This document shows positions 5,345 through 61,897 of a stretch of 64,000 nucleotides of DNA, in pieces. The stretch is from Raillietiella orientalis (lineage: Eukaryota). The translations under genes were made by a program, and so were the position numbers. The first letter of the stretch is position 1; each line of letters starts with the position of its first letter. Location: positions 62,001 through 126,000 of the forward strand of contig JAYWIR010000043.1 of assembly GCA_036172245.1 (NCBI GenBank), given 5' to 3'. The notes under the pieces were generated by a model that was given only the letters and a program-made list of their open reading frames with translations, was not told where the DNA came from and did no database searches.

Positions 5345-5650
5345 TCATTGCCCTACCCTCCATGAACTAAATTTGTATTTTCTTTTTACACCCGCGTCCC
5401 CATAGGCTCCGGAACATTTTTGGTGCTTATCGTATAAATCCCCGTGAGTACGGAGCCTAACCAAAAACCCGTTACCCTTCCCTCCAGTTTTTGATTTTTG
5501 TTTGTTTCCCCTCATTCCTCCCACGCTGCGAGCGGTTTGTTTACCAGGCCTGCGTGCCGGTAATTTTTCTATGTTCTCTGTCGTTCTCTTGGTTGGGGAC
5601 ATTGTCCCTCACCAGTTTATTATTATTAATAAACGCCCCGGAGTGACCGG

Positions 5651-8600
5651 GTGATAAATTTCAATCTCCGCCTGCTAACAGGTGAGCCGGAAACACAGGT
5701 GAACGCGATGAACGAGTTGTGCGTCGCCATGCGTGCGCGCAACTTGTTTGCTGGTGAGAGGGGAATGGTCCGCAGCATCGACCACGTCCTCCTCGACGCT
5801 GACCTGTGTTCACGGGTCGGCAAACGGGGGAGGGTTGCGTCAACGTTGTCGGACCATTCCCGGTTTATTTTCGAGATGCGGCCTCGCGACAAAGGACCGC
5901 CATCCAGAGACTGGAGTCTGCCGGGGGACTGGACGCGACTCTCAGGTGCAAAGGAACACCTTCGTGAATACCTGAGAGGCGTCACGCTCCGGAATCTCCA
6001 AGACTGGGACCTTTTCAAGGAATCGGTCCGGGAATTCTGCGAGCAGTTCCCTTTGGACCGCCTGCCCTCCGGATTCGGCGAGGGTCCTCGCAACCATCGG
6101 GCCTATTTACAGGTTCGAAGGTACGAGCGAACCCCTAATGTCCGTCGCCTGGCCGAGTACCGCGCCGGGGCCGAACGCCAAGCCTGGCAATCCGGGTCGG
6201 CCAGCTTGCTGGACGACCAGGGCCGGGAATGTTCGTCCCCGGCGTCGGTACGGCATCTCGTGCGGAGTTATTATTCCTTTCTTTACGCTAGAACGCCCCC
6301 GGATCAAGATGCCTCTCGGCTCTTGCTTCCGGATGGTGCCTCGACAATAGGGGAGGAGGAGTCGTTAAGCCTCGATGAGCCTTTTACCACCGGCGAAATT
6401 CTCGCCGGTATCAAAAGGCTCAAGAGGCGGAAAGCTCCAGGGGAAGACGGCTTGCCCGCGGAGTTCTATCAGAGCTTCACGGAAGAGCTGGCACCCCTGC
6501 TGCTTCAGCTGACAAGGCTGATCCGAGACGAAGGCGATGTTCCCGCCTCGTTTCGGTCAGCCAGAGTGAGGCTCCTTCCGAAAGGGGGAGACTTTAGGAA
6601 TTTGAACAACTTGCGTCCGATCACGATTGTGAATACGGACGCCAAGTTGGTTGCCGGGCTATGGGCTTCGCGTCTGGGGCAGGTGGCAGAATCCATTATT
6701 AGCCCGGAGCAGACATATGCTGTTCCCGGGCGAAGTATGGATGCCAACCTTTTCTTCGCGAGCACGTGGTTGCACGCGCAGAGGTATCAAAAGGAAGCGA
6801 AAGGAAAAATCGGCAACCCCACTTTGGGGCCGCCAGCAGGGCAGGGAATGGACTCCCGGGCGGGGAAGGAGGCCTTAGCGCTCGAAGTCGATCTCCATAA
6901 GGCGTTCGACTGTGTTGACCAGGGGCTTTTGTTGGAGCTCCTGGGTCGCATGGGCTTCCCACCCTCCTTGATCAACTACCTGCGCTCCTGCTGGCGCCAT
7001 GCCATAATTTCCGTCTCTTTCAGCGCTCAGAAGGTGCATGGCGTGCCGGTGCGGCGGGACATCAGGCAGGGAGATAGCCTGAGTCCCCTGCTCTTCAGCA
7101 CCTACTTTGAGTTGGTGCTGAGAGCCTACAGGGTGACTTTGGCCTCCTTGCCTAGCTCGTGTCCCGGCACGCCCGCCGTAGCAGCCTATGCCGACGACTT
7201 TCTGCTCCTGTTACCTATGTCCACCCCGGCGAAGGCGGTCGGAGACTTCTTCGATCTGCTCAGCCGTGGGACCGGACTGCAGGTCAACATGGCGAAGTCG
7301 TCGGTGGTGCCAGTAGGTGCGGCGTGGGCAGGGCAGCAGGACTGGGTCCGTCTGGGGATCCCCACGGCGAGGTGCATCAAGTACCTTGGTGTGCCGTTGG
7401 GTGACTACTCCCCTGCGGAAGCGTGGTCCAGCTGTCTTCAAAAAGTTGAGACGGCGATCGGCCCGTTCCTGGAAGGCAAGTTTCACTTGCCGGAACGGGC
7501 CGCGGTTTGGAACGCCTTCGCGGCCCCCATCCTCCGCCCCTTGCTTTTTGTTTGCCCCGCCCCCAGAGAATGCAAAAAGAGGACGAAGGACCTCCTCCGC
7601 ATCGCCCTTTGGGGCAAGGGGAGGCCCCGAGTGCCTCTGCAGGACTTGTGCGCTCCGCGTCGGGACGGCGGTCTTGGCCTCCTGACGCTGGAGCGCGTGG
7701 AAATCCAGCTGCGGTGGCGAACCCTTGCCATCGCAGCGAAGATGTGGAGCACCCCTTGGTGCGTTCTGGCCCGTCACCTCGCCAGGCGTGTGTCCCGATG
7801 CGAAGGACTCGCGTCGTTTCTTCTGTGCCCTGGCCGGAAGATCCGAAGATGCGGCCTTATGCTCGGACGCATAGCAACCTTGGCGAAGACGAACGGTTGG
7901 ATGGCTTGTGGCCCCGCCAAATCCTCCGCCTGGTTGGAGGAGTCTGCTGGCACATGGGCTAAGCTAAACCGGAGGAGCGAAAACCACATGAACTGCCTGC
8001 GAATCGGCCCATACGCCAACCGCACCCTGCGGGAAATACTGGAATTTCCTCGGAGTCGCAGGTGGGCGTTGACGACCTCCCTTGCTACGGCGATGCCCTA
8101 CCTCCTGAGGGCGCTTCAGGATTGCCAGAAGCCGAGGTGGCAAGTCACCTGCCAGATCGCAGGCAGGGAGAAGATGTTAAGCGGCTGGACCACAAAAGAA
8201 CAGGCGGACGCCACGACCCCGAGCGTCCAGCCGCGTGGACTAATGAGATGGGGCGAGCTGCTCGCCATCCCTACGGATGTGCTGAAGTGGCCCCCGGTAT
8301 TAAAGGAATCCAGGATCCTGCCCCTGAAGTGGCAAGAGTCGGCGTTGCTTTTGTTGCACTGGGGTCTACCCTGCAACGCGCGCCGCTTCCACTGGACGAG
8401 GGGAGCTGTGGATCCTTCGTGTGCCAGGTGCGGGGAGCGGGAATCGCTTACCCACCTTATTTTGGATTGTACTGCCATCCGACCCCTCTGGGAACGGTTC
8501 GGGGCGACCCTAGGGCTCCCTACGGGCAGCACCCCCAGAGACGTTCTTCGGCCCCTCTTCGTGAAGGACGCACTGCAGCTAGCCGCAGCCATCGCAGCCT

Positions 8601-8794
8601 TGTGCTGTGTCCGTGGAATCGTGGCGGCATGGAGCGACGCCAATAACGAAGGACTGGGTCCACACGCGAGGGATGTCATCCCATACGCCCAACGCTTCAT
8701 GCGGAGGGCTGCCGGATGGCCCCAACTGGGGAATATACGGACGGACCTCGAGGGCTTCCTTCAACGGATGGGCCCTCCTCACAGCGTTCAGTGA
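5651..8794 (+). CDS. ORF2 of B: uninterrupted for 1047 aa but lacking the N-terminal half of the endonuclease
   Basis: Motifs IDH, SDH, DLHKAFD, RQGDSLSP, YADD, YLGVP, CARCGERESLTHLILDC; the GTG start is created by the A/B junction. Confidence 0.88.
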   Translation: MINFNLRLLTGEPETQVNAMNELCVAMRARNLFAGERGMVRSIDHVLLDADLCSRVGKRGRVASTLSDHSRFIFEMRPRDKGPPSRDWSLPGDWTRLSGAKEHLREYLRGVTLRNLQDWDLFKESVREFCEQFPLDRLPSGFGEGPRNHRAYLQVRRYERTPNVRRLAEYRAGAERQAWQSGSASLLDDQGRECSSPASVRHLVRSYYSFLYARTPPDQDASRLLLPDGASTIGEEESLSLDEPFTTGEILAGIKRLKRRKAPGEDGLPAEFYQSFTEELAPLLLQLTRLIRDEGDVPASFRSARVRLLPKGGDFRNLNNLRPITIVNTDAKLVAGLWASRLGQVAESIISPEQTYAVPGRSMDANLFFASTWLHAQRYQKEAKGKIGNPTLGPPAGQGMDSRAGKEALALEVDLHKAFDCVDQGLLLELLGRMGFPPSLINYLRSCWRHAIISVSFSAQKVHGVPVRRDIRQGDSLSPLLFSTYFELVLRAYRVTLASLPSSCPGTPAVAAYADDFLLLLPMSTPAKAVGDFFDLLSRGTGLQVNMAKSSVVPVGAAWAGQQDWVRLGIPTARCIKYLGVPLGDYSPAEAWSSCLQKVETAIGPFLEGKFHLPERAAVWNAFAAPILRPLLFVCPAPRECKKRTKDLLRIALWGKGRPRVPLQDLCAPRRDGGLGLLTLERVEIQLRWRTLAIAAKMWSTPWCVLARHLARRVSRCEGLASFLLCPGRKIRRCGLMLGRIATLAKTNGWMACGPAKSSAWLEESAGTWAKLNRRSENHMNCLRIGPYANRTLREILEFPRSRRWALTTSLATAMPYLLRALQDCQKPRWQVTCQIAGREKMLSGWTTKEQADATTPSVQPRGLMRWGELLAIPTDVLKWPPVLKESRILPLKWQESALLLLHWGLPCNARRFHWTRGAVDPSCARCGERESLTHLILDCTAIRPLWERFGATLGLPTGSTPRDVLRPLFVKDALQLAAAIAALCCVRGIVAAWSDANNEGLGPHARDVIPYAQRFMRRAAGWPQLGNIRTDLEGFLQRMGPPHSVQ

Positions 8795-9010
8795 TCCCTT
8801 CCCTGCCCTCCAACTTCTTTTTGTCTGTTTATTTTTTTTTATTTTTCTTTTTGTTTTATCCCCATCCCCCTTTGCTGCTGAGGAACGCTACGCTGGGCTG
8901 CGTCCCGGCGTCCCGGCAGGTCCAGTGCATATGGCCGTGAGCGGGGCCTTGTACCGCGGATGTAGAGTTGTTTTTTAAAAATAAACGCCCCGGGCGTACC
9001 CGGGTGTAAA
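5658..9010 (+). mobile_element. Element B (family II), 3' portion starting inside the endonuclease domain
   Basis: Begins within the (GD)FNLRLL motif directly after the tail of A; terminus AATAAACGCCCCGGGCGTACCCGGGTG at 8980-9006. Confidence 0.92.
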
Positions 9011-12000
9011 ATCCGGAAGACGGGTCGCAAGTCCCAAAAGCAGAGGAGGCGCCTTCCCTCCACAAGCGAAGAGAAGAAGCAGGAAACCGACGACAGAGTG
9101 GGAATCCCGGAGGGGAAAATCCCACGCGCAGAAGTCGTCGAGCAGGCCACCCTCATGGAGGAGGGTGAGCAGGGGGGCGAAGTCCTCCTTGCCAGCGCGG
9201 ACCCTGTACAGCGCACCCCTATGGAGGCGGGCCAACAGGTGGGCGCGACCCCACTGGAGGATGACCCTCCCGACGCGCCGTCACCGATGGAGCAGGGGGA
9301 TCAGGTGCTCGAGGCACCTGTCCCTCCTGCTCCACCTAGCGTCCCGCCTCAACAAGTGGCGGACGCTGCAGAGCCGATTTCCCAAGAATAACACCTTGGC
9401 TCGCCTGTCGTCGTCGAATCCGCGTGGCCAGTTGGAACGTCAACGGGCTGCGCGACGACGGCAACAGACGAGATACGGCCGACACCCTGCTTGAGTTCGA
9501 CCTGGCCCTGCTGCAGGAGATCGATGTGATCACCTCGGCAGACGTCCAGGAGATCGAGACGATCGCGAGGGGTCAACTGTATTGGCGATGCGGCGCCCGC
9601 AACACCTGTGGGGTCGCGTTTTTCGTGAATCGGGTCATCGACGCCGCCGTGAAGGGCGTACGCTTCGATGACGACGGTCGGGTCGGTCAGCTGATTCTCA
9701 GCTGGTCCGACTCGATCAAATTGATCGTCACGAACGTGTACGCCCCTAGCGGGAAAGGGGGATACAGCGACCGTACCAGGCTGCTGGAAACCCTGAAGCG
9801 CGACTGGCTGGCCGATACGAACGTGCGGAAGGCACACCTGATAGCTGGGGACTTTAATCTCCGTCTGCTGTCAGGTGAGCCCGAAGCACAAGAACGCACG
9901 GCCAACGAGTTGTGCACTGCCATGCGCACGCGCAACTTGTTGGCGGACGCGGAGTGAATGGACCACAGCATCGACCACTTCTTCCTGGATTTCGACCTGT
10001 GCTCGCGGGTCGGCAAACAGGGAAAAGTTACGTCGACACTTTCGGACCATTCCAGGCTAATCGCCGAGGTTTGCCCGCGTAATAAAGGACCCGCGTCCGA
10101 GGCGTGGCGGCTGCCTGGGGACTGGACGCGGTTCTCATGTGCGAAGGAACACCTTTGCGAATTCCTGAGAGGCGTCACCCTCCGCAGTCTCAAAGATTGA
10201 GACCTCTTCAAGGCCTCGGTCCGCGAGTTCTGCGACGAGTTCCCCCTGCACCGCCTGCCCCTCGGATTTGGGGAGGAGGCTCGGAACCATTGGGCATATT
10301 TATAGGCCCGCCGGTACGAGAGGACCCCTAATGTCCATCGCCTGGCCGAATATCGAGACGGGGCCGAGCGTTAGGCCTGGCAATCCGGGTCGGCCAGCTT
10401 GCTGGACGACCAGGGCCGGGAGCGATCGGCCCCACCCGCGATCACGCACCTCGTGCGGCATTATTATTCCTCCCTCTACGCTAGGGCACCTCCAGAGCGT
10501 AACGCCTCGCGACTCCTGCTACCGGATGGAGGCCCGACAATAGGGGAGGAGGAGACGATCAGCCTGGACGAGCCTTTTTCTACCGATGAAATTCTCGCCG
10601 ATATTAAAATGCTCAAGAGGCGTAACGCGCCAGGGGTGGAAGGCCTGCCTGCGGAATTTTTTTAATGCTTCGCGATGGAGCTGGCCCCCCTGGTGCTCCA
10701 GTTGACCGGGCTGATCCGAGACGAAGGCGACGTTCCCGCCTCGTTTCGGTCAGCCCGTGTGAGCCTCCTCCCTAAGGAAGGAGACCTGAGATCCTTAGGC
10801 AATTGCCGTCCGATAACAAGTGTGAATACGGACACCAAGCTGGTCGCTGGACTGTGGGCTTTGCGTGTAGGACAGGTGGCAGACTCCATAATTAGTCCGG
10901 AGCAGACATACGCTGTTCCCGAGCGAAGTATGGATGCCAACCTGTTCTTCGCGAGCACATGCTTCCATGTGCAGCGCTGCCTAAATGAAACTGGCGGAAA
11001 GATTGGCAACCTCACTTTGGGGCCTCCAGCTGGGCTGGCAATAGACACCCGGGCTGGGAAGGGGGCATTAGCGATCGCGGTCGATTACCATAAGGCGTTC
11101 GACTGCGTTGACCAAGAGCTACTGTTGGAGATCCTGGGTCGCATGGGCTTCTTACCCTCCCTTCTTTCCTTCCAGCGCTCCTGCTGGCGCAACGCCATCG
11201 TTAACATCTGCTTTTCCAGCCAACAGGTTTACGGCGTGCCGGTGTGGCGGGGCATACGGCAGGGCGATAGCCTCAGTCCCCTGCTCTTTAGCACATACTT
11301 TGTGTTGGTGCTGAGAGCGTACAGGGTGACTTTGGCTGCCCTGCCGAGCTCGTGCCCCGGCACTTCCGCCGTAGCAGCATACGCCGACGACCTTCTGCTC
11401 ATGTTTCCCATGTTTGCCCGGCAGCCGCAGTCGAGGATTTCTTCGACCTGCTAAGTCGTGGGACTGGACTTCGGGTAAACAAGGCCAAGTCGTCGGTCGT
11501 ACCGGTAGGTGCGACGTGGGTCGTACGGCCTGACTGGATCCGCTTGGGGATCCCCGCGGCCAGGTACCTGAAGCACATGGGTGTCCCGTTGGGGGAATTC
11601 TGCCTCGCAGAAGCCTGGTCAGATCGTCTCCAAAAGGTAGAGTTGGCTATCGGCCCGTTCCTGGAAGGCAAGTTCCTTCTGCGGGAATGGGCCGCGGTGT
11701 GTAACGCGTTTGCGGCTTCCATCCTCTGCCCCCTGCTTTTTGTTTGTTGCGTCCCCCGTGACATTAAAAAGAGGACCAAGGACCTAATCTGCATCGCCCT
11801 CTGGGGCAGCGGGAGGCCACATGTGCCTCTAGATGACTTATGCGCTCCTCGTCGGGACGGCGGTCTCGGCCTCCTGACGCTGGAGAGCCTGGACATACAG
11901 CTGCTATGGCGCACACTCGCCATCGCAGCAAAATCATGGAGCACCGCTTGGTGCGTTCCGGCCCGTATCCTCGCCAGCCGTGTGTTCAGGACGCAAGGAC

Positions 12001-13200
12001 TCGCGTCGTACCTACTGTGCTCTGGCAGGAAGGTCAGAAGATGCGGCCATCTCCTTGGGCGCATGGAAGCCCTATTGAGAGACAAGGGCTGGATGGTCTG
12101 CAGCCCCGCAAACTTCTCCGCCTGGCTGGAGGAATCCGTTGCGACGTGGGCCAAGCTGAACCTCCAGACTTCCCCGGACTGGAACCGCCTGCGATTCGGC
12201 CCCAACGCCTGCTGCACACTGCGGACTACTCTGGAGTGTCCCGTCAGGAGCACGTAGGCGGAGACTTCCCCTCTAGCCTCGACCCTGCCCTTCCTACGAA
12301 GAGCTTTAACCAGTGGCCGCAAGCCGAAGTGGCAAGTCTCCTGCCGAATCGCAGGCAAGGTAAAGAAGATGAGCGGTTGAACCCTGGGATAACTGGTAGA
12401 TGCCACGACCCCGAGTGCCCTCCCGCGTGGACTTCGTCTCTCGGGCGAGGTGCTCGGCATCCCGACGGATGACCTGAAGTGGCCCTTAATACTAATCGGA
12501 TCCAGACGTCTTCCCTTGAAGTGGCAAGAGTCGGCGCTGCTGCTGTTCCACTGGGGTCTACCTTGGAACGCGCGCTGCTTCCACTGGACGCGGGGAAGTG
12601 TAAGGCCTGAGTGTGCCAGGTGTGGGGAGCGGGAATCGCTTCCCCACCTGATCGTTGACTGTGCTGCCCTCCAACCCCTTTGGGAACGGTTCGGGACGAC
12701 CCTCGGGCTCCCAATTGGCAGCGCGCCCAGAGACGTTCTTCGGCCCCTCTTCGTGAGGGACGCCCTGCAGCCCGCCGCAGCCCTTGCAGCCCTCTGCTGC
12801 ATCCGGGGCATCGTGCCGGCCTGGAGCGACATTCGCGACGAACGAGTGGATGCCAACGCGAGGGATGTCATCCCATATGCGGTCTGCTCCATGCGGAGAG
12901 CTGCGAGATGGCCCCATATGGGAAGCATGAAGATGGACCTGGAGGGCATCCTGCAAAGGATGGGTTCTCCTCCCAGTGGATTGTGATCCCTTCCTCTTCC
13001 TCCAAACTCTTTTTTTGTTTTCCTTATCTTTATTGTTCTTTTTGTTTTGATCCCTATCACCCTCCACTGACGAGGAGTGTCACGCCGGGCTGCGTCCCGG
13101 CGTCCCGGCAGGTCCGGTGTTGTGTGGCCGTTTGTGAGGCCTCGTACCACGTTTATGCAGAGTTTTTTCAATAAACGCCCCGGGCGTACCCGGGTGACAA
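9011..13200 (+). mobile_element. Element C (family II): ORF1 3' end plus degenerate ORF2
   Basis: ORF1 ends ..ISQE* at 9391; ORF2 9391-12986 has stops and frameshifts; terminus at 13170-13196 followed by ACAA. Confidence 0.92.
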
Positions 13201-13290
13201 CTTCGAAGCCGCGGGGAAGCAGGTACAAGGGGAACCGGCAGCATAACTAGCGGACCGATCTTTTCAGATCGTCCCAGTCCAAGAGCGAGA
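13201..13290 (-). mobile_element. Fragment N: family I ORF2 linker remnant; host of C and D
   Basis: Reverse complement encodes DWDDLKRSVR..CCRFPLYLLPRGF. Confidence 0.8.
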
Positions 13291-13297
13291 GCTGACA

Positions 13298-16200
13298 GGT
13301 TTATGTTTCGCTTTTAAGCGTTTGTGGTTTTATTTTATTCTTTTTTTTCTCAGTGTTGCAGTGGATTCGGTGGTGGCTAGGCAGCGATACCTAAGACTAC
13401 CTCCAATGTTAAGGAGGAGGCGACGTCTATATCGCCTCCTGAATCAATGGATGTGGATGCAACCGCCCCCACAGAAGCGACTCCCCCTCTAGGGAAAAGC
13501 TGGGTTCCGTGGCTGCGGCGGAAACCCAAGCAGCGGCGTCTCAGTTAAAAGCCTACCTAAAGGAGGGGTACAATCCCCCTCTTCTCTACAAGGTAGGCAA
13601 CCTTTACTCCTCTGAGAGTGCACGCGCTTACTCGGAAGGGATGCACTCTTTCAAAGTACTCCAGGAGGAGCTCTTGGCGATGACCATCAGGAGTAGTAGA
13701 CAGTACGTTGAGGTGATTTGCAAAGAAGCAAGTCTTGCACAGCGTTTGCTCCGTACACCTGTTCCTTTAGGGAATCGCCGGCTCCTTCCCATCACGCAGG
13801 ATAGATCTATCGTGATCCACCTCCTCGAAATCAACTTCAGGATGACCGAAGAGGCTGTCCGGAAGGAACTAATTAAATTTGGAACTGTCCTCGCGTTGTG
13901 GAAAAGACCGACTCCGTTTTGGGAGTACGATCTCCTGAATTGGAGTATGGCTTCCGCGCGCATCACGGTCCGCGAGGGTTGCTTTCTACCAAACAAGCTG
14001 GAGGTCAACGGAGAACCCGTTGGCATCTGGTATGTAAGAAAGCCGCATTTCTGCGGGCATTGCAGCACCCCAGATCTCCTGAAAAAATGTGCTTTCACTT
14101 CCAGTGCAAGCAATTGAAGCAACCCGGGCACACTCTTCCAGTGTGTCCGCAAAATGCAGTCCGCGTTGCGTCCGCACTAAATGCGAAGAAGCGCGCGGCG
14201 AGAAAGAGACGAGTCCAGGCAGCCCGAGAGACAGCAGCCGCTCGAAAAACAACTATCGTACCCCAGGTGAAAGTCAGCTCCGAGATCTTGGAAAACTCGG
14301 ACAACGTCGAGGAGAACGGCCAGGAACCTGGATGGCAGGTAGTAAAATCCAAGAGGGAGAAAAGCCTCAAGGAAGCAAAAAAAAATGTCGCGAAACGCAG
14401 CGAGAATTTGCCGCGTCCCGAAAATATCAAACGCTGCTCTGTCGTCATCAAGCGCATTCCTGCGGTCGAACAAAGCGTCAAAATTGCAGTCGTCGCTGAC
14501 TACTTTCAGCCCTCCTCCAAATTAATGATGGAGGCTATCGACCCGGCGGTGGCGTCCGTCTTCGAACACATGCACGACGACGTCGCCTTTGAGCGAGCAG
14601 CGGAGGAGCTCGCTGCGTCCTTGCAGCGTCTCCTCACATCCGCGAAAAAGGCCTTAAGGCGTCCGACCTCGATCAAGAAGTCGGAGATTCCGAACTCTGA
14701 CGCAGAGGCGGAAAACACAGCCTGCGGCATCGCGGCCTCCCACTCGAAGGCCAATCGCACGAAGAAGGCTACCCGCAAAATTATCCCTTTCCGTGGAAAA
14801 GGGAGAGATAATTGAGGAAAGCGTGCGTGCCAAAAAAGTTGGGAACTCCGGGGTCTCTCCTCGAGAGGTAACCTCACGCTGCGACCCCGGAAAGAGGGAA
14901 AGGGTAGAGTCTGTGCCCCAGGTGCTTCTAGTGCCTGAGATGGCGGCGGTCCCCTTACTCATCCCTCCCACCTGTCCCTTCACAGGTGCTGCAACGCTAC
15001 GTTCCCAGCCTTAATGCCGAGAATCGCCTCTTGCCGCCGTCTGCGAATAGCCTGTTGGAACGTCAACGGGCTAAGCGACGACGGCAAGAGACGAGACGTG
15101 GCCTCCACCCTGGCATCGTTCGACCTGGTGCTGCTGCAAGAGATCCACGTGATCTCCGCAGATCAAGCAACGGAGATCGAGCGTATCTCGGGTGGACGTC
15201 TGCTGTGGCGCTGCGGCATCGTTAAATCTTGCGGTGTCGCGTACCTGCTTCGTCCAGCTTTCGAGGCTGTGGCAAAAGGCGTACGGTTCGATAGTGCCGG
15301 TCGCGTCGGGCAGTTGACCATCAGGTGGTCCGACTCCATCGATCTGGTCATTACCAACGTGTACGACCCAAGCGGCAGCGACGCGCTAAGGGCAAAGGCA
15401 AGGAGAGATTTCTTCCTTACCCTGAGGCGCGAAGATCTGGAGGAAGCGGGAGTGCACGAAGCGCACCTAATCGGAGGTGACTTTAACCTGCGCCTGCTGT
15501 CAGGTGCTTCCGACACACTTCGGGACCGCGTGAACGAGCTCTGCGCAGAAATGCACACTTGCAACTTGTTCGCGGTAGATCCGGAAATGGCCGACACCAT
15601 AGATCACATGCTTTTTGGCCAGCACCTATGCTCACGCGTGGGCAGGCGCGGCAAGTTATCGTCGCAACTGTCGGACCATGATTGGATCGTACTTGAGGTG
15701 CGCGCACGCAATAAGGGTTCGCCGTCATCTGCGTGGCGCTTATCGTGGGACTGGCTGGAACTTCCGAAAGCCGCGGAGGATCTCCGCGGATTCATACGAG
15801 GTTTCAGTTTCCAGACGCTTTAGGACTGGGACCGCTGGAAGCGCACCGTCCGGGATTTTTGCTACGAGTTCCCTATAAACCTCCTGCCTACCGGGTTTGG
15901 TGAAAGCGTGAGTAACGAGAGATGGTATTTACAATCTCGAGGTTACGCGCGAACTGCTGACGTACGCAGGCTAGTTGAATACCGTCCGGGAGCCGAGAGG
16001 CAGGCGTGGCAATCGAAGTCGGCCAGCTTACTGGACGACCAGGGTTCGGAGCACTCAGCCCATGCCCAGGTAAAAGGCTTATTAAAAAAATTCATCTCCT
16101 CCCTGTACGCGCGCGCTCCACCGAAACGGGATGTCTCCCGAATTCTTCTTCCGGAAGGCGCTCCGGCGATCGGGGAGGAAGATAGAAAGACCCTCGACGA

Positions 16201-18135: not shown

Positions 18136-18139
18136 CCAG

Positions 18140-25474: not shown

Positions 25475-25479
25475 GATTA

Positions 25480-30996: not shown

Positions 30997-31021
30997 AACG
31001 TCCCGGCGTACCCGGGTGGAA
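30997..31021 (+). repeat. Orphan 3'-terminal hairpin whose element body has been deleted
   Basis: AACGTCCCGGCGTACCCGGGTG followed by GAA, with no 3' UTR upstream. Confidence 0.75.
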
Positions 31022-33310: not shown

Positions 33311-33319
33311 GAGAGCGGA

Positions 33320-45444: not shown

Positions 45445-45561
45445 CGTACAGTGCAGACGTGTTTCCGCGTCTTTCCGCGCCAACGATCGGGCAACTTTGT
45501 GCCTGCGTTTTTGCTCGCACTTGTGTGTTCCTGTGCAATCTGCCAAGTAGCATAGTGCAGC

Positions 45562-47274: not shown

Positions 47275-47464
47275 GGCGTGACACACTCGCCGCGGAACGG
47301 CGAGTGCTCACCTCGGAACCCACAGGTTCTGCACCCGGGGAGGAGCACCCGATTACGTGCAGCACAGTTGAGGCCGGTGGCGACCGCGCCCTCCAGCCCG
47401 TCGTGCTGCTTACTGCCCGCTCGCCGGGTGAGGCGAGCACAACGGCCTCGCTTTCCCAGCCGTG

Positions 47465-51037: not shown

Positions 51038-51393
51038 GAACGGCGTAATCCGGTGACCCCTGCGACCTCTCGCCCACCCATACCCCGTCCCCGTTCGCTC
51101 GGTAAATTTTCCGGTGCCCATGCTTTTATCCCCGTGTCTTCCAGAGCGATCCCAAAGACCCTTATCCCGTCCTCCTTATTCATTGTTTTTATTTTATTTT
51201 GGTTTCTGTGTGTTTCCCGCCCCCCCACACCGTTCACAAAACTGTTACTCTGGCCTGCGTGCCAGCAATATTCTCTTCATTCTTGTTCAGTCGTCGGTTG
51301 GGAGTTTGGTTCCCAACTGGTTTATTTTGTATAATTGCTTTTTTTTTTGGTTATGTTATATGGAATAAACGCCCCGGCGTGACCGGGTGAGAA

Positions 51394-53297
51394 ATCTCCC
51401 GGGCTTGATCTGCGGAGATCACGTGGATCTCCTGCAGCAGCACCAGGTCGAAGGATGCCAGGGTGGCGGCCACGTCACGCCTCTTGCCGTCGTCGCTTAG
51501 CCCGTTCACGTTCCAACATGCGATCAGAAGACGACGGCGAGAGGCGATTCCCGGCATTATGGCTGGGAAAGTGGCGTCGAGGCACCTGCCGCGGGGCAGG
51601 TGTAAAAAAGGTCCATCGGTACGAGGACCATCGGAACGAGGACGGAGGCCCCATTAGGAGCCTGGGGTACCTGTTCGGCCTCCATCCTCACCATCCCCTC
51701 CGTGTCCGAGCGTGGAATTCTCTCGGGCGACGGGTCCCGGGAGTTTCCCACGCTCATGGCACCCTCGCTACCGGAAGCCATCTCTTCCCCTTCGACGGGG
51801 GATACGAGCTTCCTTGGCTTTGTGGACTTACGTCCAGCCTTCTTGCGGGGTGCCGCGGAGATGGATGCTGTGTTTCCTGCCTTCACCTCGGGGTCGGAAG
51901 TGGCCGACTCCTGAGGGGAAGCCGGACGCCTGACGGCCTTCTTGCCAGCCTTGGGGGCAACAGGCTGCTGCGAGGCAGCCAGCTCCTCCGCGTCGCGCTC
52001 GAAGGCGAAGTCATCAAGCGTGAGCTCGATGACGGACGCCGCCGACTCGCTCCCCTCCTTGTTGACTTTGTCAACGGAGGGTTGAGCAGGGGCAGCAGCG
52101 AGTTCTTTAGCGCCGCATTCGTCGATGGCGGGAATCCGCTCTACGACGACGCAGCAGCTTTTAATTTTATCGCGGCGCAGAGCGGTTTCGCTTCGTTTCG
52201 CCACGTTCTTTCCCTTCTCATGGGAGTTTTTCTTGGGGTCGACCTTCTGCCACCCTGGCTCTTGACCCTCGCTCTCGACCTTTTTGGCGTTTTTCGCCGA
52301 AGTTTCGGGGCTGGACTTCGCCTTGGTGGCGGAGGTGACCTCCTTAGCAGCAGCACGAGCTGCCAGCTTCTTTCTCTTTTTTGCCGCGCACTTTCTCGCG
52401 TTTTTCGCGGACACGACGCGGACTGTGTTTTGTGGGCACACCAGACGGGTGTGCCCCGCTTGTTTGCATTGCTGGCACTGCACGCTCTTACACTTCATTT
52501 TAAGGTGACCAAAGCTGCTGCAGCAGCCGCAAAACTTGGGTTTCCCCACGTACCACACGTCAACGGATTCACCGTTGACGGTGAGTTTGTGGGGAACCTC
52601 ACATCCCTCGCGAACCGTCACTCGCGCTGCACCCAGGCCGCCAAGCAACCCGTCGTAATCGACATAACGAGTAGGCTTTCCCCACAGCGCGTGGATAGTT
52701 GCGAATTTTTCCAATTCGTTCCGGACGGCCTCCTTCGTCATCCGGAACGTGATACCGGTCAGGTGAATGATCACCGACCGGTCTTCAGTTATTGGGAGAA
52801 GCCTCCGGCTGCCCATACTTACGGGGGTTCGCAGAAGTCTTTGCGCAAGAGTTGCCTCCTTGCAGATAACTTCCACAAAGTGACCCCCGCTTCTGACGGA
52901 CATAGCCAGAAGCTCCTCTTTCTGTACGCCGAGAACGCGCATCGCCCGTGAGAAGGCGCGCGCGTTCGCGGGAGAATATAGACCGCCTACCTTACATAGA
53001 AGGGGTGGGTTATACCCCTCCTCCAGGAAAGCGCGCATTTCCGCCATAGCCGCTGGCGTAGGTGCCGCAGCCACGGCGTTCCAAGCCCTGGGTAGGGCCG
53101 GGGGCGCATCCGTGCTGGCGGGAGCCTCCACTGATGCGGGAGCCCTCACCTCCATCTGCTCCGGGGGCAATGAGGTCATCGTCGCAGGATCCTCACCGGT
53201 GGTGGTATCAGGCATTTCTGCCTAATCCTCCACCCACACCACACAAAAGCACCAACGGAAATGGAACTCAGGAGCAACGAAAAGACACGTCCGCTCG
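51394..53297 (-). mobile_element. Element J, 5' part
   Basis: Endonuclease N-terminus ..DQAREI continues as ERISGGR at 45432; 5' motif at 53281-53290. Confidence 0.93.
51557..53215 (-). CDS. Intact ORF1 of J (552 aa)
   Basis: Open from ATG to stop; knuckles CGCCSSFGHLKMKC and CQQCKQAGHTRLVC; TAATG overlap at 51555-51559. Confidence 0.9.
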   Translation of the reverse strand: MPDTTTGEDPATMTSLPPEQMEVRAPASVEAPASTDAPPALPRAWNAVAAAPTPAAMAEMRAFLEEGYNPPLLCKVGGLYSPANARAFSRAMRVLGVQKEELLAMSVRSGGHFVEVICKEATLAQRLLRTPVSMGSRRLLPITEDRSVIIHLTGITFRMTKEAVRNELEKFATIHALWGKPTRYVDYDGLLGGLGAARVTVREGCEVPHKLTVNGESVDVWYVGKPKFCGCCSSFGHLKMKCKSVQCQQCKQAGHTRLVCPQNTVRVVSAKNARKCAAKKRKKLAARAAAKEVTSATKAKSSPETSAKNAKKVESEGQEPGWQKVDPKKNSHEKGKNVAKRSETALRRDKIKSCCVVVERIPAIDECGAKELAAAPAQPSVDKVNKEGSESAASVIELTLDDFAFERDAEELAASQQPVAPKAGKKAVRRPASPQESATSDPEVKAGNTASISAAPRKKAGRKSTKPRKLVSPVEGEEMASGSEGAMSVGNSRDPSPERIPRSDTEGMVRMEAEQVPQAPNGASVLVPMVLVPMDLFYTCPAAGASTPLSQP

Positions 53298-54223
53298 ACG
53301 CTCCGGAATCTCCTGGACTGGGACCTTTTTAAGGAATCGGTCCGCGAGTTCTCTGAGCAGTTCCCTCTGGATCGCCTGCCCCCCGGATTCGGCGAGGGTG
53401 CTCGCAACCATCGAGCCTATTTACAGACCCGTCGTTACGAGAGAACCCCTAATTTTCGTCGCTTGGCCGAGTACCGCGCTCAAGCCGAACGCCAAGCCTA
53501 GCAATCCAGGTCGGCAACTTGCTGGACGACCAGGGCCGGGAATGTTGGACCCCGGCGTCAGTACGGCATCTCGTGAGAAGATTTTATTCATGTCGCTACG
53601 CAAGGACGCCTCCGGACCAAGATGCCTCTCGGCGCTTGTTCCCGGATGGTGCCCCTGCAATAGGGGAAGAGGAGTCGGTAAGCCTCGACGAGCCTTTCAC
53701 TACCGGAGAAAATCTCGCCGGTATCAAAAGCCTCAAGATACGTAAAGGCGTCAGGGGAGGACGGCTTGCCCGCGGAGTTCTCTCAGTGCTTCGCGGAAGA
53801 GCTGCCACAACTGCTGCTCGTGTTGACAAGGCTGATCCGAGGCAATAGCGATGTTCCCGCTTCGTTTCGGTCAGAAAGAGTGAGGCTCCTTCCGAAAGGG
53901 GGAGACCTCAGGAAATTGCACAACTGGAGTCCGATCACAATCGTAAAAACGGACGCCAAGTTGCTAGCGGGGCTATGGGCGTCGGGTTTGTGACAGGTGG
54001 CAGAGTCCATAATTAGCACGGAGCAGACCTATGCTGCTCCCGGGCGAACTATGGACGCAAGGCTCTTCTTCGCAAGCACGTGGATGCACCGGCAAAGGAG
54101 AGAAAAGAAAGGGAAAGGGAAAATCGGCAACCCCACATTGGGGCTGTTAGCGGTTCTGGGAAGGGACCCCGGGGCTGGGAAAAGAGCCCTAGCGATCGCA
54201 GTCGATCTCCATAAGGCGTTCGA
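53298..54223 (+). mobile_element. Element M part 2: ORF2 linker to DLHKAF
   Basis: Resumes exactly at the TSD of J and ends at the TSD of L; similar to B at about 5985-6910. Confidence 0.9.
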
Positions 54224-57200
54224 TTTTCACCCGGATTTCGCCGGGGCGTTTATTGTAAAATAAACTTTTACCAAGACGTGCGGTGGCTGGAGCATTGCTC
54301 CAGCCACGCACGAACAAACACAGAGCCTGCCGGGTCACCGGTTCGCAGACCGGTACGGTTTACCACGGCAGCAGGGGGAAAAGGGAAAAACAAAAAAAAC
54401 AAAACAAAAAAAAAAAGAAAAGTTTTGAGGGTAAGGGAAGGGATCACAGTTGCTGGTGGGGCCGTTGCATCCTTTGCAGGATGCCGGCAAGCTCCATCTG
54501 TATTCCTGGATTTAGGTGGGGCCATCGGATCGCCCTTCTCAGAAACTAAGAGGCTGGCTGCATAGCACCCTGGTCGTGTGGTCCTCCCGTAGCCTTGCTC
54601 CAGGCGACGACGATTTCGCGGAGGCAGCACAGAGCTGCTAACGAGGCCGCTAGTCGAAGGGCGTCGGCAACGAAGAGGGCTTTCCGTGCGTCCCTAATGT
54701 TGCTGCAGGGGATTCCGATGGCCGCGGCAAAGCGAAACCAAAGGGGCCGAAGGGCAACACAATCCACTAGCAGGTGGGGGCGGGAATCCCGTTTCCCACA
54801 CTTGACGCAATTGTGGTCCACCGCTCCCCAGGTGCAGTGGTGTCGGCGGGCGTTGAAGGGGAGTCCCCAGTGCTGCAACAGGAGAGCCGACTCCTGCCAT
54901 TTTAAGGAAAGGGCGGAAGTGTTCATGAGCACCGGGGGCCACTTCAGATGTTCAATGGGAACATCGAGCAGAGCACCCCAGCGCAGAAGTCCATTGGGAG
55001 GCGTACTCGGGGTCGCAGCGTCTGTTAACTGGCCCGTCTTCCACTCTCCTATCTTCTTCTCCTTTCCGGAGATTGTTACTGTAACCACTCACTTCCTTGC
55101 AACATTGCTGCCCAGATCTTCCATCAGGGAGGGAAGCGCAGCAACGAGGGGGGTTCTTCCTGCCCACGCTCCCTTCTTTGGATCCTCCAGGATCTCGCAG
55201 AGCGTGCAAATTCTGTAACCCCCAAACAGGAACCTTCGTTCCTGTTGGGAGCGTTGCATGCCGAACTGTCCCCACGTTCGAACGGTTTCCTGCAACCAGG
55301 CACTACCGTTCAAAGGGCGACAGGTGAGCAATCCTGGGTTTTTCCTATACAGCGCAGCCACCCTCCGTAGCTGGAGTCCGCATCGGTTGACGCAGCGACG
55401 GAGTGCAAGAAACGACGTCAGTCCCGTCTTGCCGGTGGCTTGCTAGAGAAGGAGACGTGCAGGGACGCACCAACAGGTGCACCACAACTCTGGAACGAGT
55501 GCGGACAATCGGAACTGGAGCTAAAGCTCCAGCCGCTCCAACGTCAGGAGGCCCAGACCACCATCCCGACGAGGAGCGCACAAGTCCTTTAAGCGCACTC
55601 GGGCCCTCCCGTTGCCCCAGAGGGCGATACGGAGGAGGTCCTTTGTCCGCTTTTTAATTCTCTCTGTGGGGGGGCAAACAAAAAGCAAGGTGCGGAGGAG
55701 AGGAGCCGCGAACGTGTTCCAAACCGCGGCCCGTTCAGGCAGGAAAAACCTGCCGCAAGGAACGGGCCGATCGCCGTCTCTACTTTTTGGAGGCAGCCGG
55801 ACCACGCTACCGAAGGGGAGTAGTCCAACAACGGCACACCAAGGTACTTGAAGCATCTCGCCGTGGGGATCCTTAGACAGACCCAGTCCTGCTGCCCTGC
55901 CCACGCCGTACCAACTGGCATCTCAGACGACTTAGCCCTGTTCACCGTAAGTCCGGTTCCCGATGCAGCAGGTCCAAGAACTCCTCGACCGCCGAAGCCG
56001 GGGTGGACATAGGGAGCAGCAGCAGAAAATCGTCCGCGTATGCTGAAACGACCGATGTACCGGCACAGTCGTGCGGCAGGTGCGCCAGAGTTCCCCTGTA
56101 CTCTCTCAGTACCAATTCAAAGTAGGTACTGAAGAGCAAGGGGATCAGGCTGTCTCCCTGCCGGATCCCACGCCGCACCGGCACGCCGTGCACGGTCTGC
56201 CCGCTAAAAGTATCATTGATGAGCGCGTCGCGCCAGCAGGAGCGCAGATAGGCCACTAATAATGCCGGGCAGCCCAAGCGTTCCAGAAGCTCCAGAAGGA
56301 GATTCTGGTCGACGCAATCGAATGCTTTTCGCAAGTCGATTGCGACCGCAAGGGCTCCCATTCACACCCGACCATCCAACCCCTTGCCGGCGCACGCACC
56401 GGAATTCCAACTGCGTACCAAGCTCCTTTCATGTTGGAGCTCTAGCCAGGTGGAAGCGAGGAAAAGGTTCGCCTTCATGCTTCGCCCGGGAACAGCATAT
56501 GTCTGTTCCGGGCTGATGATTATGTTGGCAACTTGTCCCAGACGCTCTGTTCAAACCTTAAACAGCAACTTGATGTCCGCATTCACTATTGTGATGGGAC
56601 TTCAGTTGTTCATGCTCCTCAGATCTCCTTCCTTAGGGAGGAGCCGCACCTTTGCCGAACGAAACGAGGCAAGAACGTCACCTGTTTCGCGTATCAGCAA
56701 GGTGAGATGCTGTACCAGGGGAGTAAGCTCAGTCGCGAAAGTTTGATAAAACTCCGCGGGCAGGCCGTCCTCCCCTGAAGCCTTTCGCCTCTTGAGCTTC
56801 CCGATGGCCGAGAGGATCTCGTCCATCGTGAAAGGCTCGTGGAGGGTCTTTCTCTGCTACTCTTCGATCGCTGGAGCGCCTTTGGGAAGCAGGAATCGTG
56901 AGAAGTTCGTCTCCGGAGGTGCCCTGGTATACAGGGAGGAGTAGTAACTCCTCAGCAGGCCGCGGATTTGGACAGGTGCCGAGTGCTCCTGGCCCTGATC
57001 GTCAGTAAGCTGGCCGATCCCTACTGCCAGGCTTGCTTCTCGGCTCCCGCTTTGTATTCCGCCAGCCTGCGGATGTCGGGGGTCCTGGCATAAGGACGGG
57101 CCCGCAGGTAGGCTCGTTCTTTACGGACCCCGGTCCCATAACCGGTAAGTAAGCGGTGCAGAGGGAACTGGTCGCAGAACTCCTGGACCGACCGCTTGAA

Positions 57201-59791
57201 GCGGTCCCAATCCTGGAGTGTCCGCAGCCTGAAGCTCCGTATGAACGTGCGGAGATGTTCCGCCGCGTTCGGGAGCTTCAGCCAGTCCCCTGGGAGACGT
57301 CACGCTGAAGAAGGGGGGCCCCTGTCGCGCGGATGGATCTCGAGGACTAGCGGGCGATGGTCGGAGAGCTCGCACGGTACCTTGCCGCGCCTCCCCACGC
57401 GAGGGCACAGGTGCTCGTCAAGAAACACGTGGTCAATGCTTTCTTCCATCACCGGTGCACTGGCCAACAAATGACAGGTGTGCACCGCCATGCACACCTC
57501 GTTCACCTGGACACGCACGTGATTCTGCCCATCTGGTTTCAGGCGAACGTTGAAATCGCCTGCAACCAGATGGGCATTCCGCACGCCTCTTCGGTCAGCC
57601 AGTCTCGCCGGAGGGCAAGGAAAAACTCTTTCCTCGCCCTCCTGCTCATCAGGTCCTTGCCGCTCGGTGCGTACACGTTCGTGACGATCAGATCGATCGA
57701 GTCGGACCACCTGAGAGTCAGCTGGCCGACACGACCGTGATCGTCGAACCGCACGCCCCGAGCCGCGGTCTCGACGGCTGGCCGAAGCAGGTAGGCGACA
57801 CCGCAACTTCTCGCTCTCCCACACCTGTACCATAGCCGTCCTCCGGAGATCCTTTCGATCTCTTGCGCTGGTTCTGCAGAGCTCACGTGGATCTCCTGCA
57901 GCAGCGCAAGGTCCTAGTACTCCAGAAGGGCGGATATGTCTCGTCTCCTGCCGGCGTCTGTCATGCCGTTCACGTTCCAAACGGCGATGCGCAGACGACG
58001 GCGGGTGGTGATTCTTGGCATTACTGCTGGGAAGATTAAGGTGTAGGGGAGCCCTCCTCTTGCGAGGCGGGCGGGATGTCCATGGGGGTTTCGGCCTTCT
58101 CAGGCACCTGAGGCACCTATTGGGCCTCCACTTCCTCCATCCCCTCCGTGTCCGTGCGTGGGATTCTCTCGGGCGACGGGTTTCGAGAGTTTCCCACGCT
58201 CATGGCACTCTCGCTTGCGGAAGCCATCTCTTCCCCTTCGACGGGGGACACGAGCTTCCTCGGCTTTGTGGACTTACGTCGAGCCTTTTTGCGCGGTGCC
58301 GTGGATACGGAGGCTGTGCTTCAGGCCTCCACCTCGGGGTCGAAAGTGGGGGATTCCTGAGGGGATGCCGGACGCCTTACGGCCTTCTTGCCAGCCTTGG
58401 AGGGTTCTGGCTGCAACGAGGCTGCCAGCTCCTCCGCGGCTCTCGCGAAGGCTACGTCATCGATGGTGTTGTCGATGACGGACGGCGCCGCCGGCTAGCT
58501 CCCCTCGCTGTTGATTGTGTCAGCAGAGGGGTGGTCGTTGGTAGCGGGGAGTTCTTTCCGGCAGCGTTCGGCAACATAGAGAACGCGTTCGACAACGACG
58601 CTGCACTCTTTAATAATCGCGCTACCCTGCTCTTTCTGCTTCTGTTGGTAGGCGATTTTCTCTTCCATCCTCCTCTCCTTCTTTGATTTTTTGGCCGTTG
58701 CCACTTGCCATCTAGTCTCCATACTGGCTCCCTCAACTTTTTCGGCGTTGGTTGCCAGGGTCTCGGCTGCGGCCTGGGTCTTGGGCGCGGGTGGCCCAGC
58801 CTTCGCGGCAGCTTTCGCCGCCAGCCTTTTCTGCAGAACCCGTGCGCGTTTTTTAAGGTTTCTCTTGGAAACCACCCGCACTGCTCCTTTTGGGCAAACC
58901 TCCCTCGTATGGCCCATTGTGCCGCATACTTGGCACTGCACATTGGGACACCTCTTTTTGAGGTGGCCCGACGTATTGCAGAAGCCACAGTATTTCGGCT
59001 TCCCCACATACCAGAGGTCGACGGTTTTGCCTTCAACCACCAATTTGTGGGGAAGTGTGCAATCCTCCCGAACGGTCACGCGCGCAGCAGTGAGGACGTG
59101 TTGCAGCCCCGTGTAGTCCTCGAAAGGACTAACTTTCGTCCACTGCGCGTGGACCGTTCCGTATTCCTCCAACGCGGCGCGAACCTGTTCTTTGCGCATT
59201 CGCGGGGTGACGCCTAACAGGTGGACCACCATGCTGCGGTCCGTCGTAGTGGGGAGGAGCCTGCGCATCTCCATCACAACGGGGATTTTAAGCAGTCGTT
59301 GGGCCAGCTCTGCATGTTTGCAGATGACCTCAACGTACTGACCCCCGCTGCGGATGGTCATAGCGCTGAGCTCCTCCTCTTTCACATCGAGAGCGCGCAT
59401 GTCCTTCGAGAAGGCGCGCGCGCTCTCTAAAGAATATAAATTGCCTACCTTGTAAAACAATGAGGGGTTGTACCCCTCCTCTACATAGGCCGACAATTCC
59501 GAAGCGGCTGTAGGCGATGGCGCCGACACAACGGCGCTCCACGCCCGCGCTGCAGCGGGGAATGATTCTGTGGGGGCGGATTCCTCCACCTACATCGCCT
59601 CTGGGGGCGAAGTTGGCGCCGCCCCCTGGCTCTCCATCGCCTCCGGGGGCGGCGTTGCCGCTGTCCCCTGGCTATCCCTGGTGGTCGCGTCAGGCATCGC
59701 TGCCTGATCGACCACCGAACCACACGACGCTTGCACTGGGGGAGACTTCCTGGCACGAGAAGCACTGAGAAAACACGTACACCCAGGAGCG
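54224..59791 (-). mobile_element. Element L (family III): full length, degenerate
   Basis: TSD CA(T/C)AAGGCGTTCGA at 54210-54223 and 59792-59805; ORF1 about 59697-58021; TAATG at 58019-58023; terminus at 54228-54254. Confidence 0.93.
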
Positions 59792-61897
59792 CACAAGGCG
59801 TTCGACTGTGTGGACCAGGAACTTTTCTTGGAGCGATTGGGTCGCATAGGCTTCATACCCTGCTTGATATCCTTCCTGCGCTCTGGCTGGCGGAATGCGA
59901 TGATTACCGTCTCTTTCAGCGGTCACAAGGTGTATGGCGTGCCGGTGCGGCGGGGCATAATGCAGGGAGATAGCGTCAGCCCCCTGCTCTTTAGCACCTA
60001 CTTTGTGTGGGTGCTGAGAGCGTACAGTGTGACTTTAACCCCCTTGCCGTGCTCGTGCCCCCTTACGTCCGCCGTAAGTGTTTATGCCGACGATCTTCTG
60101 CTCCTGTTACATATGTCCCCCCCCTTGAAGGCGGTCGGAGATTTCTTCGACCTGCTCAACCGCGGGACCGGACTGCAGGTGAACAGGGCGAAGTCGTCGG
60201 TGGTGCCAGTTGGTGCGACGTGGGCAGGGCAGCAGGAATGGGTTCGTTTGGGGATCCCAATCTCGAGATGCATCAAGTAACTTGGTGTGCCGTTGGGGGA
60301 CTTCTCCCTTGCGAAAGCGTGGTCCACTTGCCTCCAAAAGTCCTGACGGCGATCGGCCCGTTCCTGGAAGGCAAGTTTCACTTGCCAGAACGGGCCGCGG
60401 TTTTGAACGCCTTTGCGGCCTTCATCCTCCGCTTATTGCTTTTTGCTTTCCCCGCCCCAGGAGTTGTTAACAAGAGGACGAGGGTCCTCCTCCGCATCTC
60501 CTTTGGGGCAAGGGGAGGCCCCGAGTCCCTTTGAAGGCCCTTTGCGCTCCTCGTCGGGACAGCGGGCTCAGCCTTCTGACGCTGGAGCGCGTGGAGAAAC
60601 AGCTGCGATGGCGTACCCTCGCCATCGCAGCGAAGATGTGGAGCACCCCGTGGTGCATTCCGGCTCGTCTACTCGCCAGTCCTTTGTTCCGGTGGAGGGA
60701 CTCGCGTCTTTTTTTTTGAACCTAGGCCGGAAGATCGGAAGATGCGGCCTACAGCTGGGGCGCATGGCATCGTTGGCCATGGAGAACAGCTGGATGGTTT
60801 GCTGCCCCACCAACTCTTCCGCCTGGCTGGAGGAGTACATTGGAACGTGCGCTGTGGTGAACCGGAGAAGCCACGTAACGTAGAATCGTCTCTGATGCAG
60901 CCCCTACGCCCGCTGCACTCTGAAAAATCTCTTGAAGAATCCAGCTAGAAGCACGTGGGCAAAGACAACCTGCCTGGCTACGGCGCTGCCCTTCCTGAGG
61001 AGGGCGCTTTACAGCAGTCAAACGCCAAGGTGGCAAGTCTCCTGCTGCATCGAGAAACATGAGAAGAGAATGAGCGTCAGGACCATGGGTCAACTGGTGT
61101 TCGCCACGACCCCGTGCGTCCAGCCGCGAGGTCTAAGATACAGCGAGCTGCTGGCCATCCCTACGGATGTGCTGAAGTGGCCCCCGCTTCTTCTGGAATC
61201 CAGGATACTGCCCCTTAAGTGGAAAGAGTCGGCGTTGCTCTTGTTGCATTGAGGTTTACCCTGCAACGCACGCCGCTCCCACTGGACAAGAGGAGTTGTG
61301 GATCCTGCGTGGGTCAGGTGAGGAGAGCGGGAATCGCTCTCTCACCGTATTGTGGACTGTGCTGCCCTTCGCTCCCTTTGGGAACGGTTCGGGACGACCC
61401 TCGGTCTCCCTGCGGGCAGTTCCCCTAGAGACGTTCTTCGGCCCCTCTTCGTGAAGGACTCCCTGCAGCCAGTCGCAGCCCTTGCCGCCTTGTGCTGCGA
61501 CCGAGGCATGGTGGCGGCATGGAGCGACACCAAGAAGGAAGGAGTGGGTCAACACGCGAGGGATGTTATCCCATATGCCCAACGCTTCTTGCGGAGAGCT
61601 GCTGGATGGCCCCAACTGGGGAATATACAGATGGACCTCAAGGGCTTCCTTCAACGGATGGGCCCTCCTCTCAGCGAATTGTGATCCCTTCTCTGCCCTT
61701 CAACCTCTTTTGTTTTTTTGTGGTTTTGCTTTTTGGTTTTTGTTTTTTCCCCATCCCCTCTTGCTGCAGGGGAGTGTCACGCCAAAATGCGTTCCGGCGT
61801 CTTGGTAGGTCCCGTGCATAAAGCCGTAAGCGGGCCTGGTACCGCGTTTGTAGAGTTTTTTTTAATAATTAACGCCCCGGGCGTACCCAAGTGGCAA
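59792..61897 (+). mobile_element. Element M part 3: RT through the 3' terminus
   Basis: Resumes HKAFDCVDQ; YADD; terminus AATTAACGCCCCGGGCGTACCCAAGTG at 61867-61893 followed by GCAA. Confidence 0.9.

Follow-up and report, generated by a model that had tools for sequence, protein, structure and literature searches.

A stretch of 64,000 nucleotides (nt) from Raillietiella orientalis (GenBank assembly GCA_036172245.1, contig JAYWIR010000043.1, positions 62,001 to 126,000 of the forward strand; hereafter the window, numbered from its first letter) is filled with long interspersed nuclear elements (LINEs) that end in a common short module. The module is composed of the hexamer AATAAA, a putative hairpin with CCCGG and CCGGG arms, the trinucleotide GTG and a 4-nt tail, with no poly(A), and was confirmed to be the 3' terminus of these LINEs. 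It probably fixes both the end of the element RNA and the start of reverse transcription. The interpretation favoured here, with a confidence somewhat above even, is that the module acts in cis as the 3' end of one old lineage of L1-like LINEs of the apurinic/apyrimidinic endonuclease (APE) type, and that this lineage is of the stringent kind, in which the reverse transcriptase (RT) recognises the 3' end of its template.

The 3' module and the ends of the LINEs

A search with the 14-mer AATAAACGCCCCGG, allowing up to two mismatches, gave 13 occurrences in the window against 0.39 expected, a number reached in none of 100 dinucleotide shuffles. A covariance model built from 12 module copies was then scanned over the whole window with the filters off and returned 14 sites with E values from 1.2e-8 to 8.7e-3, exactly the 14 positions named in the original prediction, and the next match had an E value of only 6.5. 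The prediction had described one consensus in 14 copies. The hairpin and the tail are indeed found at all of them, with a decayed 3' arm at 61867, whereas AATAAA is absent at 30997 and the sites at 25188 and 41831 represent a single event. The upstream 200 nt of these two modules are 97% identical and lie within an inverted segmental duplication (89% identical); because the duplication includes the insertion junction, the pair is counted once, and the independent events comprise 12 full copies and one remnant. Upstream of the remnant at 30997 lies the antisense start of an open reading frame 1 (ORF1) and no LINE 3' untranslated region (UTR).

From AATAAA to the last base of the tail, the module measures 30–31 nt in all 13 full copies. 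The loop occurs as AGTGA, GCGTAC, CGCAC, TGCTC, CTTAC, CATAT, CGTGA and CGAAAT, differing in both sequence and length while the arms stay complementary, which bears out the predicted combination of a constant stem with a variable loop. The tail reads NNAA at 12 of the 14 sites (GCAT and GAAG at the other two) and is 4 nt long at every one. A-runs are no longer than 4–5 nt, in agreement with the predicted lack of poly(A), and none of the 14 ends is the typical poly(A) 3' end of the L1 clade.

Mapping of the LINE copies by tblastn with two ORF2 frames placed the module 155–329 nt past the ORF2 end and on the same strand in all 13 copies that reach the ORF2 C-terminus, and the copies without a module are those severed by later insertions. 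Reconstruction of the interrupted host elements identified four pairs of target-site duplications (TSDs) of 10–16 bp, belonging to the elements F, S/T, V and O (Table 1). These set the terminus 4 nt after GTG, or 5 nt in S/T with one extra base before the duplication, and so uphold the earlier claim that the element ends only a few nucleotides past the stem. Elements B, C, I, J, M and Q showed no clear TSD. For G, a mere 9-nt match between non-contiguous flanks was not taken as a TSD, and the apparent TSD match of R/U/W turned out to be homology between two 5' ends. Empty sites without the motif are available in the V paralogue at about 57860 and in an uninterrupted X' copy at about 33222. In addition, 31 contigs of the DNA run X1 were aligned over 50800–51500; they yielded no covariation for individual copies, but in five of them the alignment breaks off exactly to the left of 51394, where host-type sequence takes over. 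The absence of the motif from the paralogous empty sites shows that it is part of the element, as had been proposed, and excludes a pre-existing target in the host.

Among the long ORFs, nine of 17 tested contained RVT_1 (E 2e-20 to 1e-9), and Exo_endo_phos was found in three of 12 upstream ORFs (14939–15823 with E 2.6e-13 and 44691–45668 with E 1.6e-7 among them), two matches exceeding the curated cut-off and the third falling below it. The ORF1-like frames carry weak CCHC knuckles, and a C-x2-C ... H-x4-C pattern is invariant in an ORF2 alignment. For a C-terminal Cys/His domain, zf-RVT reached 22.7 bits in one of the 17 ORFs, under its cut-off of 27.5. The best solved relative was human L1 ORF2p (E 1e-38), with R2 proteins at 1e-14 or weaker, and the best named relatives were plant proteins of L1 type, a Fagus cluster that matched at 28% identity over 462 columns with a probability of 99.9. 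Comparison with a protein atlas led only to generic RT clusters, to which neither a clade nor a taxon was assigned. Four copies have TSDs, long terminal repeats are absent, and 5' truncation is frequent, with copies beginning at many ORF2 positions, as is usual for LINEs. Given RVT_1, Exo_endo_phos, human L1 ORF2p as the closest solved protein and the plant L1-type relatives, the repeats are classed as APE-type, L1-like LINEs, a likeness to L1 that is drawn from best matches.

Table 1. Coordinates of modules, elements, duplications and related features in the window
Feature	Position	Strand	Remarks
E1 3' module	5628–5657	+	Loop AGTGA, tail ATAA; ORF2 ends at 5326; element B directly after
B 3' module	8980–9010	+	Tail TAAA
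C 3' module	13170–13200	+	Tail ACAA; flanked by a LINE fragment in antisense
G 3' module	20599–20628	+	Tail ATAA
I 3' module	25188–25217	+	Tail TCAA; duplicate of the copy at 41802–41831
J 3' module	27563–27593	+	Hexamer AATGAA, tail GCAT
M 3' module	30777–30806	+	3' arm CCTGG, tail AAAA
Remnant	30997–31022	+	Hairpin and tail GAAG, without AATAAA; E 0.0087, model positions 9–36
O 3' module	33028–33057	+	3' arm CCTGG, tail CCAA
Q 3' module	36150–36179	-	5' arm CTCCGG (U-G wobble), tail AAAA
S/T 3' module	41802–41831	-	Tail TCAA
F 3' module	51364–51393	+	Tail AGAA
V 3' module	54224–54254	-	Loop CGAAAT, tail AAAA
R/U/W 3' module	61867–61897	+	Hexamer AATTAA; 3' arm decayed (CCCAAG)
Element B	5658–9010	+	5'-truncated; 1053-aa open frame 5633–8794
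Element C	about 9011–13200	+	ORF2 mapped by tblastn
Element G	18139–20628	+	ORF2 mapped by tblastn
Element J	25481–27593	+	
Element M	27925–30806	+	
Element O	about 31594–33057	+	5'-truncated
Element F	45445–51393	+	Full length, 5949 bp
Element S/T	53297 to 41802	-	Full length, 5535 bp without F; interrupted by F
Element V	59794 to 54224	-	Full length, 5571 bp
Element R/U/W	about 39075–61897	+	Full length; interrupted by S/T with F and by V
TSD of F	left 45433–45444, right 51394–51405	+	ATCTCCCGGGCT
TSD of S/T	41785–41800 (3' side), second copy 53298–53313	-	GGAGATTCCGGAGCGT
TSD of V	54213–54223 (3' side), second copy 59795–59805	-	TCGAACGCCTT
TSD of O	left 31584–31593, right copy begins 33057/33058	+	AACTCCGGCC
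ACGTG and T-rich 5' motif	45445–45470, 53280–53297 (-), 59770–59794 (-), 39085–39110, 22850–22875 (-), 27905–27930 (-)		
3' flanks of antisense insertions	13201, 20629, 25218, 27594, 30807, 33058, 36149, 51394, 54223		

Conservation of the module and its probable function

Mean pairwise p-distances among the 12 independent copies showed that the module is conserved in a patchwork. The values are 0.053 for the hexamer, 0.134 for the 5' flank and arm, 0.11 for the 3' arm and GTG, and 0.103 for all non-loop positions of the module taken together, whereas ORF2 (last 900 nt) and the 3' UTR reach 0.443 and 0.493, respectively. The loop (0.497) and the tail (0.39) drift freely, and the similarity ends sharply at AATAAA, the 4 nt upstream of the hexamer reaching 0.63. 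Relative to ORF2 and the 3' UTR, conservation of the non-loop module is thus about fourfold better, and the constraint on the hexamer, on the stem arms and on GTG far exceeds that on ORF2. Such conservation of the 3' terminus across diverged lineages is the pattern of stringent LINEs. The lineages concerned are well separated: the ORF2 proteins of B and F are 51% identical, and some C-terminal segments just 31–39%. One group of 3' UTRs can be aligned (8980, 13170, 27563, 61867, 36179, 25188/41831 and 54254), those at 30777 and 33028 form a pair, and those at 5628, 20599 and 51364 are near background identity. The proposal that the module is common to families with otherwise different 3' UTRs therefore holds.

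The hairpin is inferred indirectly, from two conserved arms that match each other across a loop of variable sequence and length. Their bases are complementary in 90.5% of the alignment cells, compared with 27–50% when the partner is slid by one to three columns, and the hexamer is unpaired at at least five of its six positions in all 12 folds that contain it. A scan of the window with Rfam 15 gave no match at the gathering score, and around two modules the matches were at chance level alone (E 0.34–9.7); Rfam holds a model of the UnaL2 3' element. Further hairpins were noted in the 3' UTR itself, where 8885–8975 and the homologous UTRs of the largest group contain two more GC hairpins 40–110 nt upstream of the module. 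For this group RNAalifold reported compensatory changes in four of 23 pairs, on an alignment that is doubtful between subgroups.

A mechanism combining a poly(A) signal with hairpin recognition can be proposed for the module. The unpaired AAUAAA would direct cleavage of the transcript at a point about 24 nt 3' of it, immediately past the hairpin, and the ORF2 protein would bind the hairpin together with its conserved flanks, CG before and GUG after it. The 3'-OH of the nicked target would thereby be placed at the first one or two terminal A residues, almost no poly(A) would be copied, and each insertion would end in GTG-NN-AA, with NN passed on by the parent copy and AA added afresh in every cycle. 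Such a mechanism would account for an NNAA tail of constant 4-nt length and for the missing A-runs. Since all lineages of the nest keep the same module, their ORF2 proteins could act on the RNAs of other lineages, and mobilisation across families through the shared module, as suggested in the original prediction, could in principle take place.

Several results weigh against a recognised hairpin of this kind. The covariation expected from the prediction failed to appear: none of the seven base pairs has compensatory changes (two of the seven never vary), and the covariation score of 0.061 is no better than the 0.068 of shuffled alignments. What is conserved could therefore be sequence rather than structure. 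The minimum free energies of 13 sequences, -4.3 to -13.9 kcal/mol, are likewise no better than those of dinucleotide shuffles (z -1.55 to +0.39), and in the modules at 30777 and 33028 the middle pair of the stem is a C-U mismatch, these two copies folding only in a shifted register that includes a G-U pair. Apart from the remnant at 30997, the covariance model detected no carrier other than LINEs in the 64 kb, whether a short interspersed nuclear element (SINE) or another non-autonomous sequence. Nor was the motif present in any of 43 distant loci taken from a metagenome scan with an ORF2 alignment (best-segment identity 21–64%, mostly 21–35%; a 66%-identical protein, P0001, lies outside this set), and the module is thus not seen outside this genome. 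As the stem is nearly invariant, the zero covariation neither refutes nor proves the structure. Searches for the motif elsewhere gave one match in prokaryote genomes, on a contig of a bacterial metagenome-assembled genome without LINE similarity by tblastn and blastn, which by a rough estimate is about the number expected by chance; in viral contigs there was none.

The main rival to recognition by the ORF2 protein reduces the module to a signal for 3'-end formation, which would set the cleavage site and/or stabilise the RNA end, while a relaxed RT would leave a short tail by microhomology priming at the poly(A) junction. Such a role would suit the hexamer, which is the best conserved part of the module (p-distance 0.053), is unpaired in the folds and stands 24–25 nt from the end, the canonical spacing between hexamer and end. 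Relaxed priming on poly(A), however, predicts A-runs of varied length, and a 4-nt tail is carried by all 14 ends; moreover, no consistent T-run for priming is found beside the four TSDs, and the GTG and CG flanks, conserved across lineages, would be unneeded for cleavage. As it leaves the uniform tail length unexplained, this alternative is judged unlikely, though it is the one to be taken most seriously. A different account is that the families came to share the module by exchange, through template switching or recombination between co-resident copies, rather than by deep conservation. The same-orientation chimeric junctions between D and G (18138/18139) and between D' and P (near 34564), as well as three junctions at which the tail of one element stands directly before the 5' end of another, are what exchange might leave behind. 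Because similarity stops at AATAAA, with UTR identities at background and a p-distance of 0.63 in the 4 nt upstream, the exchange would have had to break exactly at the hexamer in each lineage, and the loops and tails differ among lineages all the same. Exchange therefore appears rather improbable, and it would still imply a module that works for all families.

The remaining alternative treats the motif not as element RNA but as a palindromic target or landing pad at the DNA level. CCCGGG is indeed a palindrome in DNA, another element directly follows three of the module ends, and CCGG was read by eye in four of 12 flanks. This account is contradicted by the empty paralogous sites, and in 13 of 13 cases the module stands within the TSDs at a fixed distance from the ORF2 stop and on the element strand, so that hardly any weight is given to it. 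A cis-acting terminus recognised by the ORF2 protein remains the preferred explanation.

Relation to known LINEs

Stringent members of the L1 clade have already been described. In a monocot L1 lineage that includes LINE1-1_ZM, a conserved 3' hairpin is accompanied by a divergence of 0.144 in the last 45 nt versus 0.570 overall (PMC3472496), and compensatory changes in the hairpin as well as SINE partners were reported (Ohshima 2012, PMC3472496). Chlamydomonas L1-1_CR is likewise an L1 with a SINE partner. Of the green-algal L1 families listed in Table 1 of PMC3472496, five out of 15 lack a 3' repeat, and poly(A) is therefore not shared by the whole clade. The background given with the prediction, which separated stringent from relaxed LINEs, agrees with this study, whereas the contrast with an L1 that relies on poly(A) holds for mammalian L1 only, because stringent L1-clade lineages are known. 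The LINEs of the window resemble the monocot and Chlamydomonas elements in their L1-like ORF2, in last tens of nucleotides that are much better conserved than the rest, and in a putative terminal hairpin that is read as the RT recognition site. The monocot and Chlamydomonas elements, however, have a poly(A) end, a stem that varies with compensation, and a conserved loop and 3' flank, while in the window the stem is near-invariant, the loop is free, AATAAA lies within the conserved block, and neither poly(A) nor a SINE partner was seen.

Other comparisons are looser. UnaL2 of eel, ZfL2 of zebrafish and SART1 of silkworm, as cited in PMC3472496, also need a 3' stem-loop and have a defined RT start, yet they belong to other clades and end in short tandem repeats (UnaL2 and ZfL2) or poly(A) (SART1). 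The green-algal L1 families without a 3' repeat are similar in ending in neither poly(A) nor a repeat, a comparison made from their table entries alone (PMC3472496). As far as they are described in the portions consulted of PMC8226300 and PMC3446292, the Zepp and ZeppL clusters, which are putative centromeres of green algae, are GC-rich nests of L1-type LINEs only, with mutual insertion, frequent 5' truncation and tandem runs of 3' ends. The window is likewise a nested cluster in which existing copies are targeted; the likeness is one of nest organisation. According to Table 1 of PMC3472496, Zepp and L1-1_CR carry (A)n at the 3' end, which the elements of the window do not.

In the searchable literature, which is without most subscription journals and Repbase, the literal motif strings were found in an unrelated cancer paper alone. 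The kind of element is already in print, as stringent L1s with 3' hairpins and as algal L1s without 3' repeats, and current understanding is not overturned. What the window would offer is a clean natural example of a LINE lineage that defines its RNA end and RT start without poly(A), with the poly(A) hexamer inside the conserved block and a stem kept in sequence around a free loop, which inverts the situation in the monocot L1 lineage. Should this be confirmed, the module would be a data point for stringent recognition as the ancestral state of L1-like elements (PMC3472496), and its 30 nt would form a compact tag with which non-autonomous partners could be located and insertions in this genome dated. 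The nest around the modules may also bear on the growth of LINE-only clusters.

Architecture of the nest

The window, with a GC content of 53–62%, is occupied wall to wall by nested and diverged LINE copies; self-comparison gave diverged repeats of 65–91% identity throughout, and no host gene was recognisable in the 64 kb. Four full-length elements of 5.5–5.9 kb are nested three deep between 39075 and 61897: F (+) lies within S/T (-), which lies within R/U/W (+), and V (-) is a second insertion into R/U/W. Elsewhere, O lies within X'. The nested full-length elements F, S/T and V have TSDs, and R/U/W has none. Element F consists of ORF1 (45556–47274) with a weak CCHC knuckle, an open ORF2 frame (47840–51037) containing the APE end, RT and the C-terminal Cys/His motif, and a 3' UTR of 329 nt. 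Near their 5' termini, at a distance of 8–25 nt, full-length copies have in common a short motif made of ACGTG and a subsequent T-rich run, which may be a conserved start or promoter element.

All nine independent insertions into LINE bodies, including the four verified by TSDs, are antisense to their hosts (two-sided binomial P about 0.004, for sites that may be non-independent). The strand asymmetry of GGAG/GGAA-type words is about 1.2-fold and does not explain this bias. TCC occurs within 9 nt of the flank at six of 13 sites against a background of 16% (P 0.011, post hoc, with several ends off by one), a weak hint of an endonuclease target motif. The majority of insertion sites fall at positions 2160–3070 of the 5.9-kb element. 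C (13201) and the remnant (31023) stand at the same nucleotide, within 1, of two paralogous hosts, of which a third copy (about 33222) is empty, and the sites of G (20629) and F (51394) are about 28 nt apart in two other paralogues.

Head-to-tail junctions are located at 5657/5658, 9010/9011 and 61897/61898, where the next element follows in the same orientation after 0–5 filler bases and without an A-run; two of the downstream elements are truncated and one is full length. These junctions would fit either a template jump onto another RNA at its 3' end or priming on resident tails. The chimeric junctions D|G and D'|P join a 3'-truncated D to a 5'-truncated G and D' to P at non-homologous positions, and could come from internal template switches or rearrangements. 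A bolder scheme would have a poly(A)-free RNA end formed behind the stem-loop in the manner of histone mRNA, and an RT that jumps from one template to the 3' end of another or primes on resident AA. This would build the head-to-tail runs and, with a strict antisense preference for a few sites in resident copies, a self-feeding nest like those of algal centromeres; the scheme is regarded as a long shot.

Segmental duplications were identified between 22880–25473 and 41547–44149 (89%, inverted), 13198–14544 and 33222–34564 (87%, direct), and 39074–39663 and 61899–62488 (91%, direct). Composite pieces were duplicated along with their insertion junctions, and the nest thus grew partly by duplication besides insertion. 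An assembly gap of 99 N lies within the nest at 62845–62943. A 615-aa open frame at 11399–13246 on the minus strand, antisense to ORF2 of element C and without a Pfam match, is probably a by-product of the GC-rich coding sequence.

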